DNA of 64,000 nt. It comes from a virus. Shown here one piece after another: positions 31,712 through 56,697 of the stretch; position 1 is the first letter of the stretch, and each line of letters begins with the position of its first letter. The notes under the pieces were generated by a model that saw only the letters and a program-made list of their open reading frames with translations, did no database searches and was not told the DNA's origin. The stretch lies in IMG/VR virus record IMGVR_UViG_3300035698_008372, positions 32,001 through 96,000 of that record. One strand, 5' to 3'. Position numbers and translations under genes: made by a program.

Positions 31712-32570
31712 ATGACTGAAGAACATACAATGTTTGAATTAGCTTCCGATATTAAGGATAAGCTATCAGACGTTATCAACCCCGACGATCTAACTGATGT
31801 TATAGAAGTGGTTAGGCAATCTGAAAATGGTGCATATCATTCTGGGTTGGGGACTGTCACAATTAAAAAGTCACGCAAACGGATTAATGTTTACGTGTCA
31901 TTTACTGGTAATACTGGTTCACGTAGGGACAGCGTGAGTACATCGGTTGACACGATATTGGGTGTCAATGATTCGTTGCATAAGTTGAAATACCATAACG
32001 ATGTAATCAAATATGAAACCAAAGGTCATTGGGATTATTTATACGAAATTGAAATATTGGTAACAAAATAATGGCCAGCGATTTAAAAAATGAAATTGCC
32101 CTCGCTGTTGGTAAAGAAAAAGGTCGAATTCTTCATAGTGATTATGTTAAAGAATTGAACAAAAGGCTGGAATTGATATCAAAGGGGACATTGGCACATA
32201 AGGTGTGGGCAGCTATGTGGATGGATAATAAATTGCGAACCAATATGAAAAAAGATTTGAGCACCGAATATTACGATGGTACAGTGGATATGTGCAATAT
32301 GATTTTAAGAGAATTTGACGAAGTATTTTTAGAAGAGGAATTCGTCACACAAGAGGAAGAATAATGAAATTAAAAGATTTACAGCCATACGATAGTTTGA
32401 CATTTAGAAATAATAGAGTATATTTGACGTATGCCGGTTCTATTTGGGATACGCATAACGAAGATTTTACGTCAAAAAAGAACAGAAAATTTGACATTGT
32501 TAGGGTTGAACGAAACGGGGAAATCCTATTCGAAGATGAGGAATATAAAAGGTTACACAATGTTACTTAG
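31712..32570 (+). other. Three coupled small early ORFs (31712-32071, 32071-32364, 32364-32570)
   Basis: TAATG overlaps after promoter; no recognisable motifs. Confidence 0.6.
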
Positions 32571-44547: not shown

Positions 44548-45645
44548 ATGGTAACTTTTAAATTATCGGATAAATTTATAGATGGGTTCAAGCGCAAGCG
44601 GGCACCCTTCGGTTTCAATGGGTTAGGGGCCCTAGTATATATGAGGACATATTCCAGAATAAAGGAAGATGGTTCAAATGAACAATGGTGGGAAACAGTA
44701 CAGCGTGTAGTTGAAGGTACATATAGCATGCAGAAAAACTGGATAGACGAACAAGGTCTTGGATGGAACCCATGGCAGGCACAGAGGTCTGCACAGGAAA
44801 TGTATGAGCGTATTTTTGAAATGAAATTTCTACCACCCGGACGGGGTCTGTGGGCAATGGGCACTGCTATCACTGAAGAAAAGGGATTGTATGCGGCATT
44901 GAATAACTGTGCATTCGTATCCACCGAAAATTTGAAAGACGATTTGGCCAAACCATTCACGTTTCTAATGGACGCTTCCATGTTGGGAGTCGGTGTTGGA
45001 TTTGATACAAAGGGGGCAGGGCAACTTATTGTCAAAGGCCCTAATGTGGATAGACCACCAGAAAAGTTTGTAATCCCAGATTCCCGTGAGGGTTGGGTTG
45101 ATGCCATGAAATTATTGATCGAGAGCTATTTTCTTGGTACTTCACCTATGGATTATGATTATGATACAATCAGGCCAGAGGGAGCACCAATAAAGGGGTT
45201 CGGCGGCACTTCAAGTGGGTACAAACCACTTAAAGCTGCTATGGATGAAATATCCAAAACACTAGATAAAAATGTTGGGGCACCTATTACAATAACCACA
45301 ATAGTTGATATTATGAATCATATTGGTAAATGTGTGGTGGCCGGAAATGTCAGACGCTGTTTACCAAATCACTATGAAGTTCAAACGGAAAATGGTTTCA
45401 AATGTATGAGTGAACTTACATCGGGAGATATGATAAATACAGCAGGAGGTTTGCGAGAGGTTAATGATGTCATAGATAGCGGAAAACAGAAAGTGTTGAA
45501 AATTAAAACGATGAACAATACTGAATATGAAGCTACTGAAAAACATACATTATTGGTATATAATCAGAAACTAGGCTTTAAGTGGAAAATGGTAAAGGAT
45601 ATTGATTCGGAGTTAGATTTTTTAGTTAAACCCAAAAATAAATAA
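44548..45645 (+). CDS. nrdJ: Class II ribonucleotide reductase part 1 + split intein N-half (from Cys at 45358)
   Basis: RTYSR, PPGRGLW, NNCAF, VAGNVRR|CLP...ATEKH. Confidence 0.9.
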   Translation: MVTFKLSDKFIDGFKRKRAPFGFNGLGALVYMRTYSRIKEDGSNEQWWETVQRVVEGTYSMQKNWIDEQGLGWNPWQAQRSAQEMYERIFEMKFLPPGRGLWAMGTAITEEKGLYAALNNCAFVSTENLKDDLAKPFTFLMDASMLGVGVGFDTKGAGQLIVKGPNVDRPPEKFVIPDSREGWVDAMKLLIESYFLGTSPMDYDYDTIRPEGAPIKGFGGTSSGYKPLKAAMDEISKTLDKNVGAPITITTIVDIMNHIGKCVVAGNVRRCLPNHYEVQTENGFKCMSELTSGDMINTAGGLREVNDVIDSGKQKVLKIKTMNNTEYEATEKHTLLVYNQKLGFKWKMVKDIDSELDFLVKPKNK

Positions 45646-45711
45646 AATATGAAGCGGTTAAGAATAATGGATACCGATTTAAATTAGATGTATATTAATA
45701 GGAGAATGATT

Positions 45712-46458
45712 ATGTATGGGATAGAAGATTTCAATTTGGAAGATTTCAATTTAATTTCGATTATGGAAATAGTCGATGAAAATAAATATGTTCAAACGAT
45801 GGACATAGAGGTTGCGGACAAGCATCATTTCTTTGTACGAAATCCTGAATACTCGGATGAATGTATTGTATCACACAATACAGCCGAAATTGTATTTGGT
45901 GATCCTGAGAATCAGGAATATTTGGACTTAAAGGATTACGACGTGAATCCATATAGGGAAGAATTTGGGTGGACATCGAACAATTCTATATTTGCCGAAT
46001 TGGGCATGGATTATACTGATGCTTGTAAACGTGTTGTGAAAAATGGTGAACCGGGATTTGCATGGCTTGAGAATATGCAGGGTTACTCACGTATGAAGAG
46101 CGGTAAAGACTACAAAGATAGACGTGTAAAAGGTGGAAATCCATGTGTTGTTGGTGATTCAATTATTACTACTGATAGAGGTAGACTTAGAATGGATGAA
46201 TTAGTTGAACGTGTAAATTCAGGTGAAACCATAAAAGTTATGTCTTTTAATGAACAAACATTAACAACTGAATTTAATGTTATTACAAAAGCGTGGATGA
46301 GTAAAAAGGATGCTACTGTATTGACATTGGAAATTGAGGAAAATGACCAAATGTTTAAATTGACATGTACCCCCGACCATAAAATATATACAACTAATCG
46401 AGGATATGTTGAGGCTAATGATTTAACTGGGGAGGATGATATAAAAATAATTACATAA
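45712..46458 (+). CDS. nrdJ: NrdJ part 2: intein-1 C-half + 88-aa extein + intein-2 N-half
   Basis: MDIEV..HHFF..VSHN|TAEIVFG..SNNS..GEPG..GGNP|CVVGDS..TPDH. Confidence 0.9.
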   Translation: MYGIEDFNLEDFNLISIMEIVDENKYVQTMDIEVADKHHFFVRNPEYSDECIVSHNTAEIVFGDPENQEYLDLKDYDVNPYREEFGWTSNNSIFAELGMDYTDACKRVVKNGEPGFAWLENMQGYSRMKSGKDYKDRRVKGGNPCVVGDSIITTDRGRLRMDELVERVNSGETIKVMSFNEQTLTTEFNVITKAWMSKKDATVLTLEIEENDQMFKLTCTPDHKIYTTNRGYVEANDLTGEDDIKIIT

Positions 46459-46526
46459 TTCGTTTGTATATGGTATTTATTTTTGATATTTATAATAAAG
46501 AAACACTCTATATAAAGGAATGAACT

Positions 46527-47582
46527 GTGAAAACATATTGTGAAAAAAAGAACGGAAAAATTAAATTTGGAGATACTAATCATATTAGTTACGTGGGTCA
46601 CTATACAAACAATAACAATAAAACATATTATTTGCGTAGCAAGATTGAATTCGTGGTGGCTAGATGATTAGATATAAAAAATCTTAAATTTTTATATGAA
46701 TGCAAAATATATATAATAAATTCAAAAAATTATAAACCCGATTTTTTCCACACTGTAAATGATAAAATCAGAACTATTATAGAAGTAAAACCAGATAAAC
46801 AAACGGCTCTGGAATATTATTCTAAATATAACGAGTATTTTAAGAATATAGGAATTCGGTATGTAGTTTTATGAGAAAAACACATACATCAATTAATACG
46901 TAAAAATAATTTACAAGATGAGGTACTAAATTGAATAGACTATAGCATCACGAATTATAAAGTTCCCGATATGAGAGGGAAAAATAATCCTAGATATGGA
47001 ATGAAAACATCAGCAACTACTAAAAAGAAGATAGGTGATAAGACCAGAGAAAGATGTAAGGATAATGAGTATATTGATAAATTGAGTACCTCTATTTCTA
47101 AGTTCTATAATACGGACATGGGACTAAAACGAAGAAATGAAATTTCAGAGTTAAGAAAACGTGAAAACGTAGAATTCTGGAAACGGAAAAATCATGATGA
47201 CCCACTTACTACTGCTATATGTAAAATATGTGGTGATTTATTTAGATATAGAGGTATTAGTGAAAGTGGTCGTGTAACTTGTAGAAAAAATGGATGTACT
47301 ACAAAATATAATAATAGTATTGGAATTCCTCGAAAACCATTATCTAAAAAATCAAGTATTAGCTCATATAAAACAAGACTGTTAAACGGTGGTAATAAAA
47401 TGAAATTAACTGAAAACTATAAAGATTGAAACGAGAAAATTAACATGTTAAAGAAAACGTATAATATTCCAATGACGTTTGGTATGAATGAAAATACCAT
47501 TGTCAAATATTTTGGAAATATAAACACCTATATAAAGGAGATAAAAAAATATGGGAAAACTAATAAGAACGATTTTACATAA
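46527..47582 (+). mobile_element. Free-standing endonuclease (TnsA-like PD-(D/E)XK + NUMOD3-like) with four in-frame TGA
   Basis: LRSKIE, YKPDFF, IEVKP, GKNNPRYG; TGA at 46665, 46872, 46932, 47427. Confidence 0.75.
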
Positions 47583-48767
47583 AACTGTGGAGGATGTATT
47601 CGATTTAACCGTCGATGCTGTCCATAATTTTATAGCCAATGGTATATTGGTACATAACTGCCTTAACTACTAAGTCTCGGGGCAGTATAAATTTCTCCTG
47701 ATTGACTTGGAAGGTGAGTATACACCGACAGGGCGCAAGGGTAAAGCCAGCGTGAGAGACTGAGCGGAGAAACTTCAAAATGAAGATGCGACAGTCCACC
47801 TTATGAATCGAAACTTCTGATACGATTTGTAAACAGCGAACAAAGTTTAGAATCCTATGAATTGTGTTGTCTAGTTGAAACATTTCCAGACAATCATACG
47901 AGCAAAGAAGATTATTTGCGAACATTGAAATATGCTTATCTTTATGCAAAGACAGTGACACTTGGAAAAACTCATTGGCCAGACACAAATAGGGTTATGC
48001 TGAGAAATCGTAGAATTGGTACATCGGTATCTGGTATTGCCCAATTCATTACCAATCGAGGTCTGGGTGTACTCAGGGATTGGTTGGAAAGTGGGTACGA
48101 TGAGATTAAGAAATGGGATGAGATGTATTCAGATTGGTTATGTATTCAGCCCAGTATAAAAATTACAAGTGTGAAACCTAGTGGGACAGTATCACTACTG
48201 GCCGGATCAACTCCAGGATTACATTATCCAGAGAGTAGGTTCTACATCAGGCGTGTACGACTGGCAAAAAGTAGTAAACTGATTACACCACTTGAAAACG
48301 CTGGATACAAAATAGAACCGGCTTATGGTTCTGAAGAAAGCACAGTTGTGGTGGAAATTCCCATTGATGAGGGTGATGGAATTAGGACAAAGAAGGACTT
48401 AACGATGTGGGAACAATTGGCCCTTGCGGCGTTTATGCAACGGCATTGGGCTGACAATGCTGTTAGTGCCACGATCACGTTTGATCCGGAAACCGAATCG
48501 GATCAACTCCCATTCGCTTTGAACTATTTTCAGTATCAATTAAAAGGCATTTCATTTCTACCTAGAGTGGAAAAGGGGGCCTATAGACAAATGCCGTATG
48601 AGGAAATCACTGAAAGTGAATATGATAATATGAAAACTAATCTAAAATATTTGAGTTTAATTCACATTGAAGGGGAAATGGCAAACCCAGAAAAATATTG
48701 TGGGAATGATACGTGTGAAATTGATGCCGAGTGGGCACAAGTTGAAGATGAACAGGATGAAAAATAA
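47551..48767 (+). CDS. nrdJ: NrdJ part 3: intein-2 C-half + catalytic Cys, interrupted by group I intron (exons 47551-47663, 47837-48767)
   Basis: VFDLTV..HNFIANGILVHN|CL/EQSLESYELCCLVE; RRIG; VKPSGTVS; C-terminal CxxxxC. Confidence 0.88.
47664..47836 (+). ncRNA. Group I intron (173 nt, no ORF)
   Basis: IGS GGGCAGT pairs with 5' exon ACTGCCT (U.G at splice site); TCG pairs with 3' exon CGA; P7 GAGACTG/CAGTCC; ends in G; splicing restores frame. Confidence 0.85.
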
Positions 48768-49900: not shown

Positions 49901-49973
49901 GCGATTGAGGTGTTCAAGGGGAGCACGTCGGTATTCCATATCGAAGGAGTGGGTTCGAATCCTGCCGATCGCT
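49901..49973 (+). tRNA. Non-canonical tRNA-Gly(TCC)
   Basis: GCGATTG/CGATCGC, U73, loop ATTCCAT, TTCGAAT T-loop, A8. Confidence 0.8.
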
Positions 49974-49984
49974 CTATTAAAAAT

Positions 49985-50057
49985 GCGATTGAAGTGTAAC
50001 AGGTAAGCACGCCGACATACCATGTCGGAAGAGTGGGTTCGAGTCCTACTGATCGCT
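49985..50057 (+). tRNA. Non-canonical tRNA-Gly(ACC)
   Basis: GCGATTG/TGATCGC, U73, loop ATACCAT, TTCGAGT T-loop, A8. Confidence 0.75.
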
Positions 50058-50084
50058 CTATTAATGCAAGGAAAAAAATGTTAT

Positions 50085-51419: not shown

Positions 51420-53180
51420 ATTTATAAGTCAATTTATTTCGAAGCGGAAAAACAGAAGATTCATTTGTGGGATGATGACCGCGGCTATTTCACAATACCA
51501 TATAGACGTTATGGGTATATAAAAGATAGGGGCGGCACATATACTTCATTATATGGGGACAGGCTTAAGAAAATCCACAAGTGGGGCAAAGATTCCACTG
51601 GATTATTTGAGAGTGATGTACACCCTGAAACAAGAACATTAATTGATCTGTACACCAATGACGATGAACCATCAAAAGGTAACAAAACGATTATTATTGA
51701 TATTGAAGTCGAGGTCACAGATGGATTCCCAACTGCTACTTTGGCCGAGAATAAGGTTACGGCTATATCAATTTACGATTTTACGGATAAGAAATATTAT
51801 GGTTTGGTATTGGAAAATGGCAAGGGTATTATCAAGCCATCCACAACTCCAGAGCTTGACATTGAAGTGTTTGATATGGAAGTTGATTTGTTGAATAGAT
51901 TCATGCAGATATACCTACGCATAAAACCAACTATTATTACTGGTTGGAATGTGGATAGATTTGATGTAACATACCTATACAATAGAATGGCCGATCAGCT
52001 GGATGAAGATGTAGCCAATTGCTTGTCTCCAATCGGTGTGGTACATTGGAGTGATTTCAGGGGTAGCTACAGAATCGCTGGGGTTGCAACAATGGATTAC
52101 TTACAGTTGTATAAGAAATTTACATTTACGCAACAGGCTTCATACAGATTGGATGCGATTGCTGATTTCGAATTGGGTGAACGCAAAATTGAATATGATG
52201 GTACACTAAACGAATTATATGAAAATGACATTGAAAAATTTGTCCAATACAACATCCATGATGTTCGACTAATTGAGATGTTGGACAAGAAATTGAATTT
52301 TATAGAAATCGCTCGTGGTATTTGTCACTTGGGGCATGTTCCGTATGAAGATATTTACTATGACAGTAGATACCTAGAGGCTGCTATTCTTGTTTATCTG
52401 AAAAAATTGAACATCATCGCTCCGAATAAGCCCGAGCGTGAGGGTTGGAAGGATGAAATTGGCTTTGAGGGTGCTCACGTTCAAAAGCCCAAGAAGGGTC
52501 GTCATAATTGGGTATATGATTTGGATTTAACATCAATGTATCCAAGCATCATTATGTCGTTGAACATTTCTCCAGAGACAAAAATAGGTAAAATAGATGG
52601 GTGGGATTCCAATAAATTTGTGAAAAAAACCCCAAAAACCTATACTGTCAAATATGGTACAACCGCACTCCAATCCATGGATCAGGATGAACTACAGGTA
52701 TTTTTTGATACCAATCATGTGTCGGTATCGGCCAATGGGATATTGTACAAAACTGATAGGGATGGCCTAATCGCGTCACTCCTGAAAAAGTGGTTCGACG
52801 AACGTGTTGAATTCAGAAAATTGGCTAAGAAGTTTGCCGACGCGGGTGATAACGAGAAATATGATTATTTCAATAGACGACAACATATCCAGAAGATTCT
52901 CCTTAACTCACTTTTTGGGGCACTCGGTTTGCAGGGTTGGAGATTCCATGACGTAGACAACGCCCTTGCAGTTACATCGACGGGGGTAGAATTAATTCGA
53001 TTTTCCAAAACCATTGCAAACCATTATTACAATACTGAGCTTGGTAAAGAAATTGAACTTGAAATGGAAGATGGGTCTATCAGAAAATTATATGAAAATT
53101 GGCCAATCCATGTAAAAAGGGGTGGTAAAAAAGTTCAAATTTTAGCCAAAAATCTCAAAATAAATGATGATATTCTCTAA
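51420..53180 (+). CDS. Family B DNA polymerase, N-terminal subunit (probable ATT start), ending in a partial Hint-like tail
   Basis: Exo DIEVE, GWN..FD, YNIHD; DLTSMYPS; KILLNSLFG. Confidence 0.9.
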   Translation: MYKSIYFEAEKQKIHLWDDDRGYFTIPYRRYGYIKDRGGTYTSLYGDRLKKIHKWGKDSTGLFESDVHPETRTLIDLYTNDDEPSKGNKTIIIDIEVEVTDGFPTATLAENKVTAISIYDFTDKKYYGLVLENGKGIIKPSTTPELDIEVFDMEVDLLNRFMQIYLRIKPTIITGWNVDRFDVTYLYNRMADQLDEDVANCLSPIGVVHWSDFRGSYRIAGVATMDYLQLYKKFTFTQQASYRLDAIADFELGERKIEYDGTLNELYENDIEKFVQYNIHDVRLIEMLDKKLNFIEIARGICHLGHVPYEDIYYDSRYLEAAILVYLKKLNIIAPNKPEREGWKDEIGFEGAHVQKPKKGRHNWVYDLDLTSMYPSIIMSLNISPETKIGKIDGWDSNKFVKKTPKTYTVKYGTTALQSMDQDELQVFFDTNHVSVSANGILYKTDRDGLIASLLKKWFDERVEFRKLAKKFADAGDNEKYDYFNRRQHIQKILLNSLFGALGLQGWRFHDVDNALAVTSTGVELIRFSKTIANHYYNTELGKEIELEMEDGSIRKLYENWPIHVKRGGKKVQILAKNLKINDDIL

Positions 53181-53242
53181 GTTTATACTATTTATATACA
53201 GACACAATGTATCAATGTATAAAATATAAATTGGAGAGTAAG

Positions 53243-54082
53243 ATGAAAAAGGGGTCAGCGAGAACATTACAATATTGATTGGATAAAGGGTATAAAGGGG
53301 AAGAAGCAGAAAAAATGCGTATGAGCAGAATTCCAGGTACTATAGAATATTTTACTATATTTAAGGGGCTCCCATTGAATGAGGCCGAAATTGCGAAAGA
53401 AAATTATAACAAAAGGTCCGTTCCGACATTGGAAAATATGATACGCAAGTATGGGGAAACTGAAGGTGAAATTAGGTGGGGTGCATATCGTGAAAAACAG
53501 GCAAAATCCAATACATTTGAATATAAGCGTGATAAGTATGGTTGGACATTGGAACAATTCGATGCTTATAACAAATCAAGGGGATTGTCTGGTAAAGACA
53601 ATGGCAATTATGGGTCGAGCTATTATGAAGCTTGGGTTAAAAAGTATGGAAAAATAAAGGCCGATGAAATGAATAATGCTTTAGGTGAATTGAAAGCCAA
53701 AGGGGGGAAATCTCAAAAAGGTGTACCCAAATCATTTGTGGCTAGAAAAAATATGAGTATAGCTGCAAAGAAAAGGATAATGGATCAGGGTACTTACATT
53801 TCATATAATCCAAATTCAATTCCGATAATTGAAAAATATGGAAAAGAAAATGGATATAAATTTCAACATGCTGAAAATGGCGGCGAATATTTGGTTAGGG
53901 AAGTTTACTATTGGGTAGATGGGTATGATCATGAAAATAATGTGGTGGTTGAATATGATGAAAAATACCATGAAATGCAAACGGAAAAAGATAAAATTAG
54001 GCAACAACATATAATGGATGTGTTGGGGTGCAAATTTATAAGAATTAAAGAATCTGGAGAAATTAAGATTTATGAAAATTAA
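53243..54082 (+). mobile_element. Free-standing homing endonuclease between PolB halves; in-frame TGA at 53276
   Basis: QY[W]LDKGY; KYG repeats; QHAENGGEY..YWVDGYD..VEYDE. Confidence 0.8.
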
Positions 54083-54993
54083 AAATATAAGGGAATCAAA
54101 AGGTGTCGATGTGGATCATGTTATCTACATCGACACGTAGTGCGGATTCACTATTTATTTCGTCAACCGCGATGGTGAGCAAACGATATGGAAACAAGAA
54201 ATTCAGTGATGTCATGCTGTCACAGTACATCTTGACAATAGCTGGTGACACCCAAAAATTCATAAATAACTCGTATGACTATTTTGCCAAGAAATTCTGT
54301 AATCTTCCCGGTGCACACCGGTTTGAGATTAAACAGGAATTGATTGCAAAGTCAGCTGTATTTGTCAATGCTAAGAAAAATTATGGGTTGCGTGTTATCA
54401 ATGACAATGGTGTGAAAGTGGATAAAAATGTGTACAAAGGCTTGGCCGTAGTTCGCAGTGATTTCCCACAATCATACAGAAAATTGTTAGGTGAGGTGCT
54501 AGGTGATGTTCTAGCGGATGTTCCAAAAGATAAGATCGACGATCGTATTATTGAATACAAAAACAACATGAGATACTTGAATGTCGAAGATATCGCCAAA
54601 CCAACTGGGGTTAAGAATATCAAAAAATATTTGGTTCCACCTGGAGCGGGTGGGGGATTTTCTACTTGGAAGTCTCGTTGTCCTATCCATGTCAAATCAT
54701 CTATCATATACAATGATTTGATTAAGCATTTTGACAAACAAAAGAAGTACGCATTGATAGGGGCCGGCGACAAGGTCAAATGGGTGTACTTAAAGAAAAA
54801 TAATTTAGGATTAGAAAGTGTGGCTTATACAGGTCACGAAGACCCAAAGGAAATTATGGATTTCATATATAATTTTGTGGATAGGGATAAGATGTACGAT
54901 AGTATATTTTTGAACAAAATCACATCAATATATTCTGCCATGGACTGGTCGTTGCCCATAGATAAAAAGTTCTCGATGGACAGATTTTTTTAA
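54072..54993 (+). CDS. PolB C-terminal subunit; YIDT/DSLF motif interrupted by 7 nt (54138-54144)
   Basis: GGAG SD at 54056; YIDT*...DSLF; KKNY, KGL, C-terminal clamp-type MDRFF. Confidence 0.8.
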
Positions 54994-55044
54994 TCGTTTG
55001 GGCACATTAATGTATATGTATATATAAAGAAACAAGGAGTTACA

Positions 55045-55764
55045 ATGGAAAAAGGAAAATTAGTACGGTTTATTCAAAAATATCATTTGAATGGCAACGT
55101 ACAATCGGTTTCAATGAATAGTGACGGTGAGACGTTAAAGGCGGAGTTTGTAACTTCGGACAGAGGGTTGCTCGGAACTATTAAAATGAAGAATTGGGGA
55201 TTTGAAAAATCCAAAATTGGTATCTTGGATACTGAGAAGTTCTTAAAATTATTGGCAGTATTGGATAATGATGTTAAATTGTCATTGTTAAAAGCTGGCG
55301 ATACGGCAATCACATTAAAGGTCGCGGACAATAGTTCTACAGTCAATCTGATGTTATCAGACTTGTCGGTAATTCCAGCTGTACCGCCTTTGAAGTATGT
55401 GCCGCCAATGAATCTCAAGTTGAACTTGGATTCAAATTTCATTAAGAAGTTTATCGCTGGTAAGGGTGCTCTATCCGATGTGGATAATTTCACAGTGGTC
55501 ACAGATAACGATTCTGTTAATTTGGTGATCGGTTATGCATCAATTAATACGGACAGGGTTATTGTTCCAGTTGATACTGAAGTATTCGAAAAGATTGACA
55601 AGGTATCATTCAACGCAAATATCTTCAAAGATATCCTGCAATGTAACCGTGAATGTAAAAGTGGAGTAATGGAAATCAGCTCAGAGGGTCTTTCAAAACT
55701 GACCTTTAATGTTGATGACTATGAAGTTGTGTATTTCTTAGCCGCATCTGAAAACGTAGGATAA
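55045..55764 (+). CDS. Sliding clamp (gp45-like)
   Basis: Size, beta-rich pattern, position between polymerase and clamp loader. Confidence 0.75.
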   Translation: MEKGKLVRFIQKYHLNGNVQSVSMNSDGETLKAEFVTSDRGLLGTIKMKNWGFEKSKIGILDTEKFLKLLAVLDNDVKLSLLKAGDTAITLKVADNSSTVNLMLSDLSVIPAVPPLKYVPPMNLKLNLDSNFIKKFIAGKGALSDVDNFTVVTDNDSVNLVIGYASINTDRVIVPVDTEVFEKIDKVSFNANIFKDILQCNRECKSGVMEISSEGLSKLTFNVDDYEVVYFLAASENVG

Positions 55765-55770
55765 ACAACA

Positions 55771-56697
55771 ATGGTTAGAAAAACATCTCATTCGATATGG
55801 TGTGAATTATATCGACCAACATCAATGGAAACATTCGTAGGAAATGATCATCTCAAGGATAAAATTGATATGTACATTGAAACCAATGATCCGCCCCACC
55901 TGTTATTTCATGGTAAGGCGGGCACTGGTAAAACTACATTGGCCAAGGTCATACATAATAGTATAGACTGTGACCACTTGTACATCAATGCTTCAGACAA
56001 AGGTGGTGTGGATTACATTAGGACTGATATCATTCCATTTGCCAGTAGTGTTGGATTTAGGGAGTTGAAATTGGTTATCCTCGATGAGGCCGACTTTTTG
56101 ACTCCACAATTCCAAGCATCACTACGCAACGCTATGGAAACGTACGCGATGAATACTCGGTTCATATTGACTTGCAATTACCCCGAACGGATAATCGAAC
56201 CAATACAGAGCCGGTGCCAAATGTTTGAAGTTTATCCTCCAAGCAAAAAGGAAATCGCCGTACATGTCAGTGCAATATTGGCAAAAGAGGGTGTGAACCA
56301 TACCGCGAGTGACATCGGATTGATTGTCAATAGTAAATATCCAGACATTAGAAGTATTATCAATACATTGCAGAAACAATCAATTAATGGTGAGCTGAGA
56401 TTGGACAAGCGTTCGGTTGTGGAAAGTGACTATAAATTGAAGATATTGGATGTACTGAAAAAGCAGGATAAGAAAAACTCATTTGCTAGTATTAGACAAA
56501 TGGTGGCGGACAATTCAATCAGAGATTTCGCTGAGATTTATTCAATGTTATTTTCTGAGGTGGATGATTACGCTAAGGGTCATATCGCTCAAACGATATT
56601 GATTCTGGCCAGATACCAATTGAGTGATTCTCAAAGTGTCGATAAAGAAATAAATTTTATGGCATGCGTAATAGAATTGTTAGATTGTATTAAGTAA
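55771..56697 (+). CDS. Clamp loader ATPase (gp44/RFC-like)
   Basis: YRP, GKAGTGKT, INASD, LDEAD, SRC, DIRS. Confidence 0.95.
   Translation: MVRKTSHSIWCELYRPTSMETFVGNDHLKDKIDMYIETNDPPHLLFHGKAGTGKTTLAKVIHNSIDCDHLYINASDKGGVDYIRTDIIPFASSVGFRELKLVILDEADFLTPQFQASLRNAMETYAMNTRFILTCNYPERIIEPIQSRCQMFEVYPPSKKEIAVHVSAILAKEGVNHTASDIGLIVNSKYPDIRSIINTLQKQSINGELRLDKRSVVESDYKLKILDVLKKQDKKNSFASIRQMVADNSIRDFAEIYSMLFSEVDDYAKGHIAQTILILARYQLSDSQSVDKEINFMACVIELLDCIK

Follow-up and report, generated by a model that had tools for sequence, protein, structure and literature searches.

The window analysed here is a stretch of 64,000 nucleotides from a virus (positions 32,001 to 96,000 of IMGVR_UViG_3300035698_008372, a 140-kb IMG/VR record that is ~71% complete), and our subject is the gene for the DNA polymerase PolB, the only PolB gene found in that record. 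The gene is divided by a homing-endonuclease cassette, and each of its two parts carries, on the side facing the endonuclease, an extension which in sequence resembles the corresponding end of a split intein. The parts of the locus, all on the plus strand, are as follows.

51420..53045, plus strand: core of the PolB N-part (exonuclease, palm motif A, fingers motif B), by Pfam, gp43 homology and RB69 alignment
53046..53180, plus strand: tail of 44 residues (53046-53177) with its stop codon, TAA (53178-53180)
53243..54082, plus strand: free-standing homing-endonuclease gene, with an open reading frame (ORF) at 53279..54082 (804 nucleotides) that is in frame from ATG 53243
54072..54104, plus strand: leader, the first 11 codons (MKIKNIRESKG), a putative first-strand remnant of a split-intein C-fragment with net charge +3
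54103..54136, plus strand: RNA hairpin with a 14-base-pair stem and a 6-nucleotide loop (54103-54116 pairs with 54123-54136)
54138..54144, plus strand: coding gap of 7 nucleotides (UAG U GCG) within motif C, between YIDT and DS
54145..54993, plus strand: PolB C-part, from the second motif C Asp through the thumb to a C-terminal end of the clamp-binding type, by homology in all relatives

The ORF at 51465..53180 matches Pfam DNA_pol_B_exo1 and DNA_pol_B and is thus assigned to the N-part, whose core is homologous to cyanophage gp43 and to the PolB of Microcystis phage Mel-JY01, and ends in a Gly equivalent to G610 of RB69. The mechanically called start of this ORF is the TTG at 51465. Homologues begin 15 codons further upstream, where the window has ATT (51420); the interval 51420-51465 encodes 15 conserved PolB N-terminal residues in frame 5' of the TTG, and a purine-rich stretch lies ~9 nucleotides before the ATT, at which the polymerase may be initiated. 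At its other end the N-polypeptide finishes as an earlier note on this DNA had claimed, with exactly the 43 residues quoted there, from 53049, followed by TAA.

The same note placed the break in a variable loop just before motif C, and both sets of comparisons that bear on this agree with it. Firstly, PolB is unsplit and reads straight through in 43 of 43 IMG/VR relatives, including two with ~78% nucleotide identity, and it is likewise continuous in the nearest isolate, Mel-JY01. None of the 43 unsplit relatives has a counterpart to the 44-residue tail. Secondly, the tail, the endonuclease gene and the leader together stand in place of a five-residue loop which varies in sequence and length among relatives, and which by alignment corresponds to residues 611-615 of RB69 gp43, between the palm helix and the motif C strand (D621, D623). 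A group I intron spanning the insert was considered as well and rejected, an Rfam scan of 52000-55500 having returned noise only.

The ancestry of the tail was approached with a tail-only profile, which HMMER compared with 1.84 billion representative proteins. Nine matches were obtained at E ≤0.001, three of them repeat proteins which matched through a short repeated motif and were judged spurious. The best match (P0007, E 3e-6) is an N-fragment of PolA carrying a canonical N-terminal split-intein half (IntN), with Cys1 and TxxH. Its identity as an intein is borne out by matches to the Ssp DnaE intein in the PDB (1ZD7, 3NZM; E 0.0015-0.003) and by a weak match to Pfam Intein_splicing at positions 45-92. 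Aligned by BLASTP, the tail and residues 202-243 of P0007 are 48% identical and 79% positive, ungapped, at E 1e-11. The locus encoding P0007 (L063) continues with a gene for a TnsA-like endonuclease, followed by a PolA C-fragment bearing the C-terminal intein half (IntC), which begins MKIKKIRK and ends in N before the C of the host protein. The leader shares 8 of 11 residues with this IntC, both sequences counted from residue 1 (E 0.001). Since the tail matches the IntN and the leader the IntC of L063, the two PolB extensions correspond, on sequence evidence, to both of the ends that face the endonuclease in a single split intein.

Other searches with the tails were less informative. A seven-tail profile containing no intein rows ranked the split intein of a T4-like phage PolB (9HTH) second among PDB sequences, as its best intein match, at a weak E of 0.079; the top match, a short SUMO motif, was judged spurious. 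Weak Pfam matches of the tails to DrmE_C are also given by a true IntN from locus L049. In 50,697 isolate phage records, tblastn with the tail found nothing below E 4.

The earlier note had proposed a comparison with the Hint fold, which was carried out by modelling a 52-residue tail region with AlphaFold (AF2) in two ways, once with four true IntN rows in the multiple sequence alignment and once with tails only. Both models show the same four-strand pattern, with predicted local distance difference test scores (pLDDT) of 85 and 83, respectively. In Foldseek searches all matches of low root-mean-square deviation (1.3-1.9 Å over 40-44 columns) were inteins; the E-values were poor, the query being so short. 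When VIA was run exhaustively against 48,161 representative chains, Hint proteins took all of the top 25 positions, with Z up to 5.5. The predicted fold thus matches Hint proteins exclusively in both the low-deviation Foldseek set and the VIA top 25. The ranges aligned by VIA were 48-95 in Npu DnaE, 55-105 in NrdJ-1, 39-85 in gp41-1 and 67-115 in Aes123 PolB1; in every case the aligned Hint stretch is the last ~50 residues before the split or endonuclease-insertion site. Homology and fold therefore extend over about half of a Hint domain. Taken together with the library and pairwise E-values (3e-6 and 1e-11) against a canonical IntN and with the match of the leader to the same intein's IntC, these results support the claim that the locus holds an intein remnant.

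That remnant was also said to be incapable of splicing, and the residues concerned are indeed missing in every lineage. We aligned the tails with four genuine IntN halves, two from a ribonucleotide reductase-like gene of the window and one each from L049 and L063. The tail spans roughly the β3 strand to the split site. Block A, with its Cys or Ser nucleophile, has no counterpart, as the tail starts in mid-domain directly after the PolB Gly and the first ~58 IntN residues are unmatched. At the TxxH positions, which read T..H in the four true inteins, the tails have Y..W (window, L049, L057), Y..N, Y..S, Y..M or D..E. The columns invariant among tails are instead E-x-E-x-E, R-x-G and DD. The leader passes from an IntC-like start to the PolB motif C strand, with no block F or G, no terminal Asn and no +1 Cys, Ser or Thr. 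Block A, TxxH, and HN with its +1 nucleophile all being absent, splicing is excluded, and the element is not an intein by the defining features of that family.

Between tail and leader lies the endonuclease gene, in the arrangement known from fractured genes: host halves flank a free-standing endonuclease gene and intein pieces occupy both inner ends. The earlier note's account of a free-standing endonuclease followed by a MKIKNIRE start is upheld by the ORF at 53279..54082 and the ATG at 54072, which overlaps the 3' end of that ORF; the family assignment is the weaker element, as the match of the C-terminal domain to the DUF559/Vsr type (E 0.0013, 19 bits) falls short of the 20.6-bit cut-off. 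The protein further matches PHROG 22677, which is unannotated. Compared with PDB sequences and with the L063 endonuclease it gave no meaningful match, and a search of IMG/VR found a single weak relative (L047). The same C-terminal domain recurs in the endonucleases of loci L057 and L072.

Copies of this endonuclease gene differ in how far they are intact. The window gene is intact except for one TGA at codon 12 (53276-53278), where L057 has TGG; reciprocally, the L057 gene, on the minus strand, has one TGA at codon 79, where the window has TGG (Trp). The ratio of nonsynonymous to synonymous substitution rates (dN/dS) between the two is 0.13, and the in-frame TGAs could represent recent decay or a deliberate low level of read-through. 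In L049 the endonuclease is a stop-ridden remnant of ~40 codons and both tail and leader are intact, while in LR756508, a 484-kb phage, tail and leader are recognisable and four unrelated ORFs occupy the gap between them. As is typical of cassette-derived tails, the extensions are absent from unsplit homologues and are kept after endonuclease loss.

The earlier note's statement that the C-subunit starts with MKIKNIRE is correct as to the start; the implied single ORF does not exist. The frame stops after 22 codons, at TAG 54138-54140, right after YIDT in the middle of motif C, and the remainder of PolB (DSLFISS... to 54993) resumes at 54145, one frame over and past 7 extra bases. The identical gap sequence occurs in four independent assemblies and is thus not an assembly error. 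Gaps were compared in four lineages:

Window: take-off ACG, spacer UAGU, landing GCG, resumes GAU
L057: take-off ACG, spacer UAGU, landing ACG, resumes GAU
L049 and L050: take-off ACG, spacer UAGUUAA, landing ACG, resumes GAU
L066: take-off ACU, spacer UG, landing ACU, resumes GAU

The gaps measure 5, 7, 7 and 10 nucleotides over these lineages. In each of them a Thr codon precedes a stop, which in L066 is a UGA formed by the UG spacer and the first base of the landing codon, and the last three bases of the gap repeat the Thr codon, in near-cognate form (GCG) in the window. Take-off and landing codons co-vary (ACG/ACG, ACG/GCG, ACU/ACU), and resumption at GAU gives back the exact motif C.

The hairpin immediately upstream has its 3' arm in the motif C coding sequence, ending inside the window's take-off codon (ACG, 54135-54137), and its 5' arm in the leader codons for VDVD. 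Its predicted stability is -22.2 kcal/mol (z -4.4), and 0 of 200 shuffles fold as well. A stem of 13-14 base pairs is conserved in three lineages, with one compensatory change from G-C to A-U; the hairpin also occurs in L066 and is missing from the unsplit L003. The locus accordingly combines features of programmed bypassing, namely matched take-off and landing codons (the window's landing codon being near-cognate), a stop in the A site and flanking RNA structure. Two other mechanisms were rejected as common explanations: +1 frameshifting, since the +1 frame meets UAA in L049, and internal initiation, since in L049 and L057 a TAA blocks the downstream frame, in which no start codon precedes the DS codons. 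The sequences point to a short hop of the peptidyl-tRNA-Thr as the sole reading that fits all four lineages. An exact-pattern scan of IMG/VR for the 7-nucleotide gap returned one chance match, in a structural gene (L048), and a second pattern returned none.

Whether this gene is maintained at all may be judged from its substitution rates. The N-part core has a dN/dS of 0.045-0.058 and the C-part 0.022; for the two PolB halves the range is 0.02-0.07 at saturated dS, indicating strong purifying selection, and 0.02-0.06 in three lineages, all of which carry the gap. Values for the tail are 0.09-0.36 among close lineages and 0.31-0.45 against L066, at dS 1.2-1.4, with 0.19 for the adjacent core segment. 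In the leader dS is 0.08-0.18, as against at least 1.2, and up to saturation, in the flanks. Charge is conserved too: in 5 of 5 PolB lineages the first 10 residues of the tail have a net charge of -3 to -5 and the leader one of +3 to +4, the same pattern as in a real intein. Domestication of the two remnants as a non-covalent clasp would be consistent with all three observations: purifying selection, their retention where the endonuclease has decayed, and the conservation of opposite charges.

We consider the following explanation, taken as a whole, to be probable, if some way from secure. A homing-endonuclease cassette that entered the palm loop before motif C would have brought with it the two endonuclease-proximal pieces of a split intein, the last ~44 IntN residues becoming the C-terminal tail of the N-polypeptide and the first ~10 IntC residues the N-terminal leader of the C-polypeptide. 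Since all splicing residues are missing, the polymerase would be made as two chains that are never ligated. By alignment the tail begins at about β3 and the leader is β6. In split inteins, β6 at the IntC start and β3 of IntN form an antiparallel 'charge zipper' which initiates capture-and-collapse assembly, as described with the gp41-1 structure (bioRxiv 10.1101/546465; see also PMC11923092), and the acidic first strand of the tail could pair with the basic leader in the same manner. These paired strands and the tail's small globular portion would then form a half-Hint mini-domain, and tail and leader would serve as a non-covalent docking 'clasp' between the chains. The attachment points need to lie side by side, since five residues suffice to connect them in the uncut enzyme; antiparallel pairing would put the start of the tail beside the end of the leader, and so close the severed loop again and hold the motif C strand in place. 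The C-polypeptide itself would be completed by the hop, with take-off from ACG, UAG in the A site and landing on GCG 7 nucleotides downstream. This hop was probably favoured by selection because, with the gap in place, the motif C sequence targeted by the endonuclease would be interrupted. As to origin, an endonuclease already flanked by partial intein sequences may have been inserted once, which is simpler than two deletions from a full split intein.

Each component of this proposal has some precedent among known systems. Fractured genes, described by Dassa et al. 2009, are split inteins with a free-standing homing endonuclease between their halves (PMC2677866). They and L063, whose PolA split intein is the closest sequence relative found, share with the window the order of host N-part with IntN piece, endonuclease, and IntC piece with host C-part. 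Endonucleases of the Vsr-like or GIY-YIG type mark the fractured genes, and the window's gene, by its match below the cut-off, may be of the former type. In contrast to them, the window keeps only the stretch from about β3 to the first IntC strand, with the catalytic blocks gone, and its insertion lies in a variable loop rather than at a conserved catalytic residue with a +1 nucleophile. The cysteine-less split intein Aes123 PolB1 of T4-like Aeromonas phages (PMC11923092; PDB 9HTH) also interrupts an enzyme of this family beside motif C (native flanks DTD and SVY), and its residues 67-115 superpose on the tail model. It differs in being complete (120 + 39 residues), in trans-splicing, and in lying inside motif C, ~ten residues downstream of the window's break.

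Two further systems offer tails of the cassette-derived kind. In the arrangement nrdA-a / mobE / nrdA-b of Aeromonas phage Aeh1, the one studied precedent, enzyme activity depends on cassette-derived C- and N-terminal tails of opposite charge (Crona et al. 2010, PMC3045599), and the authors suggested that these tails originated from a degenerate split intein (PMC3045599). As in the window, a free-standing endonuclease splits an essential replication-related gene and the tails bear opposite charges; unlike the window, no intein homology was shown for the tails, the host enzyme is another one and the endonuclease is of the HNH type. In the T4 MobA element (gene 39 / mobA / gene 60), C- and N-terminal extensions accompany a bypass of 50 nucleotides (Manning and Atkins, bioRxiv 10.1101/2022.08.31.505936), the extensions are kept after endonuclease loss, and the bypass protects against the endonuclease (bioRxiv 10.1101/2022.08.31.505936). 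Here too a cassette splits an essential gene, adds conserved and lasting tails and is associated with an untranslated gap just downstream, and this gap resembles the window's in its stop after the take-off codon, its matched take-off and landing codons and its 5' stem-loop. The differences lie in gap length (50 nucleotides versus 5-10), in the host gene, which is another one with no sequence relation, and in tails without reported intein ancestry. Lastly, the split gp43 (43A/43B) of Aeromonas phages 25 and 44RR, for which we rely on the summary of Petrov et al. 2010 in PMC2988022, is likewise a T4-type PolB encoded by a pair of cistrons; in one of the cases a free-standing endonuclease separates the pair, and a second insertion, a group I intron, interrupts the downstream member. 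Its pieces co-purify and are active, and that summary, in contrast to what is seen in the window, reports neither intein-like tails nor a coding gap.

Several observations weigh against the proposed clasp or the evidence for it. Given the tails by themselves, Pfam detects no Hint family, and no intein was recovered from PDB sequences with a profile built from three tails. With a piece as short as 52 residues the structural Z-scores stay modest (≤5.5), and inteins were included in the training of AlphaFold. The leader's similarity spans ~10 residues only, and the VDVD that follows its start is at least partly dictated by hairpin complementarity. The landing codon of the window, GCG, requires a first-position G.U pair. 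The tail is under less constraint than the polymerase core (dN/dS ~0.3 versus 0.05). Among the known systems, the split gp43 of phages 25 and 44RR is active with no intein-like tails reported in the PMC2988022 summary, and the tails of Aeh1 NrdA are needed for higher-order assembly and activity, not for the association of the halves (PMC3045599), so that 'clasp' in the narrow sense may be the wrong word.

These last points are also what lends most substance to the strongest competing account, in which tail and leader are neutral passengers: translated cassette edges that merely supply a stop and a start, of genuine intein ancestry and without function, while the halves hold together through their own palm/thumb interface. 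Polymerases that work without known intein-like tails (phages 25 and 44RR, as summarised in PMC2988022), Aeh1 halves that associate without theirs (PMC3045599) and a tail that evolves faster than the core are all what such an account would predict. It fits less well with a tail dN/dS clearly below 1 at saturated dS (0.31-0.45 against L066), with tails and leaders that remain intact where the endonuclease has decayed and in phages that are very divergent, with the invariant E-x-E-x-E, R-x-G and DD columns and the conserved opposite charges, and with the confident compact fold that AF2 gives for the tail. We regard it as unlikely, though worth keeping in mind.

Somewhat less likely still is that the remnants function otherwise than as a clasp, the tail in activity or holoenzyme assembly and the leader mainly in translation, as the nascent peptide and hairpin context of the hop. 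The Aeh1 tails, essential for activity and not for heterodimer formation (PMC3045599), set a precedent for the former role, and the N-terminal extension of the T4 MobA element, which also acts in bypassing (bioRxiv 10.1101/2022.08.31.505936), for the latter; synonymous sites in the leader have hardly changed, and the 5' arm of the hairpin is formed by a stretch of the leader. Against this account, LR756508 retains a recognisable leader despite having a full intein, not a gap, in motif C, and what has been kept is precisely the two segments by which the halves of split inteins pair.

That the gene is a decaying pseudogene in which no feature is functional seems very improbable: a stop and a frameshift inside a catalytic motif, in a metagenomic contig that is 71% complete and has one PolB found, might suggest as much, yet both halves show low dN/dS in three gap-carrying lineages and the gap variants keep the exact motif after the hop. 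A still-active, non-canonical split intein that ligates the PolB pieces is the least credible alternative, as split inteins do occur at motif C of T4-like PolB (Aes123 PolB1) and true ones elsewhere in this genome, but the window's extensions amount to about half a Hint domain and lack the Cys/Ser block, TxxH, blocks F and G, the terminal Asn and a +1 Cys, Ser or Thr.

How polypeptides from endonuclease-split essential genes are reassembled is an acknowledged open question (PMC2988022). Tails on such genes were known before, with an intein origin guessed only, for Aeh1 NrdA (PMC3045599); what is new here is the half-Hint ancestry of both tails in PolB, in combination with a miniature hop. That ancestry is supported by sequence and by predicted fold, and the part retained comprises the segments which find each other first in split inteins. 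The docking explanation preferred above would therewith give a concrete model of how an intein can be domesticated into a non-catalytic docking module, and a natural, minimal 'split-intein zipper' of this kind could serve protein engineering. One gene, moreover, links three ways in which mobile elements neutralise their own damage, namely tails, a ribosomal hop and, in relatives, true inteins. As a tentative generalisation, which we hold to be conceivable and by some way less assured than the account of the window itself, the Hint stretch from β3 to the first IntC strand may be a self-contained and portable heterodimerisation module. Cassettes would carry it as a built-in 'antidote' that lets them invade variable loops of essential replication genes, with PolB and the PolA-like fragments of L064 and L068-L071 as examples, without splicing chemistry; in the present PolB lineage it would have been joined with a miniature hop that shields the endonuclease target.

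Related cassettes were noted in other contigs. In the uncultured phage LR756508 (L001, 258500-268500), PolB has the same split with tail and leader and, in addition, two full inteins, in motif B and motif C; the latter is inserted between YTD and TDS, one codon from the site of the window's 7-nucleotide gap. L064 and L068-L071 are unrelated contigs, one of them readable only with TAG as Q, which carry a tail of the same family, also lacking TxxH, on short PolA-like fragments covering the motif A region. The fragments in L068-L071 are frameshifted and adjoin a complete PolA of 567 residues, and may be relics. A cassette of the PolB type in L072 comprises a tail fragment, an endonuclease of 319 residues with NUMOD3 repeats and the window-type C-terminal domain, and a leader that begins MKIKKIRR and has seven residues inserted ahead of the motif C strand, at which point the contig ends.

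Genuine split inteins occur in neighbouring or related genes. At 44548-48767 of the window a ribonucleotide reductase-like gene is fractured by two of them: one IntN is at the end of ORF 44548-45645, its IntC and the second IntN are in ORF 45688-46458, and the second IntC is at 47563-47658, with an endonuclease-like ORF between the members of the second pair. After this last IntC, which ends HN before C, the frame is open for four codons only and the homologous frame resumes ~200 nucleotides on (47862); Rfam found no intron at this break. In L049 (6483-8762) a complete split intein (Cys1, TxxH, HN before C) divides a clamp-loader gene, whose halves are separated by a zinc-ribbon ORF and a TnsA-like ORF; the window's copy of the gene (55771-56697) is uninterrupted. 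Finally, two adjacent tRNA-Gly genes (anticodons TCC and ACC) lie at 49901-50058 of the window, just upstream of a DruA-like gene.

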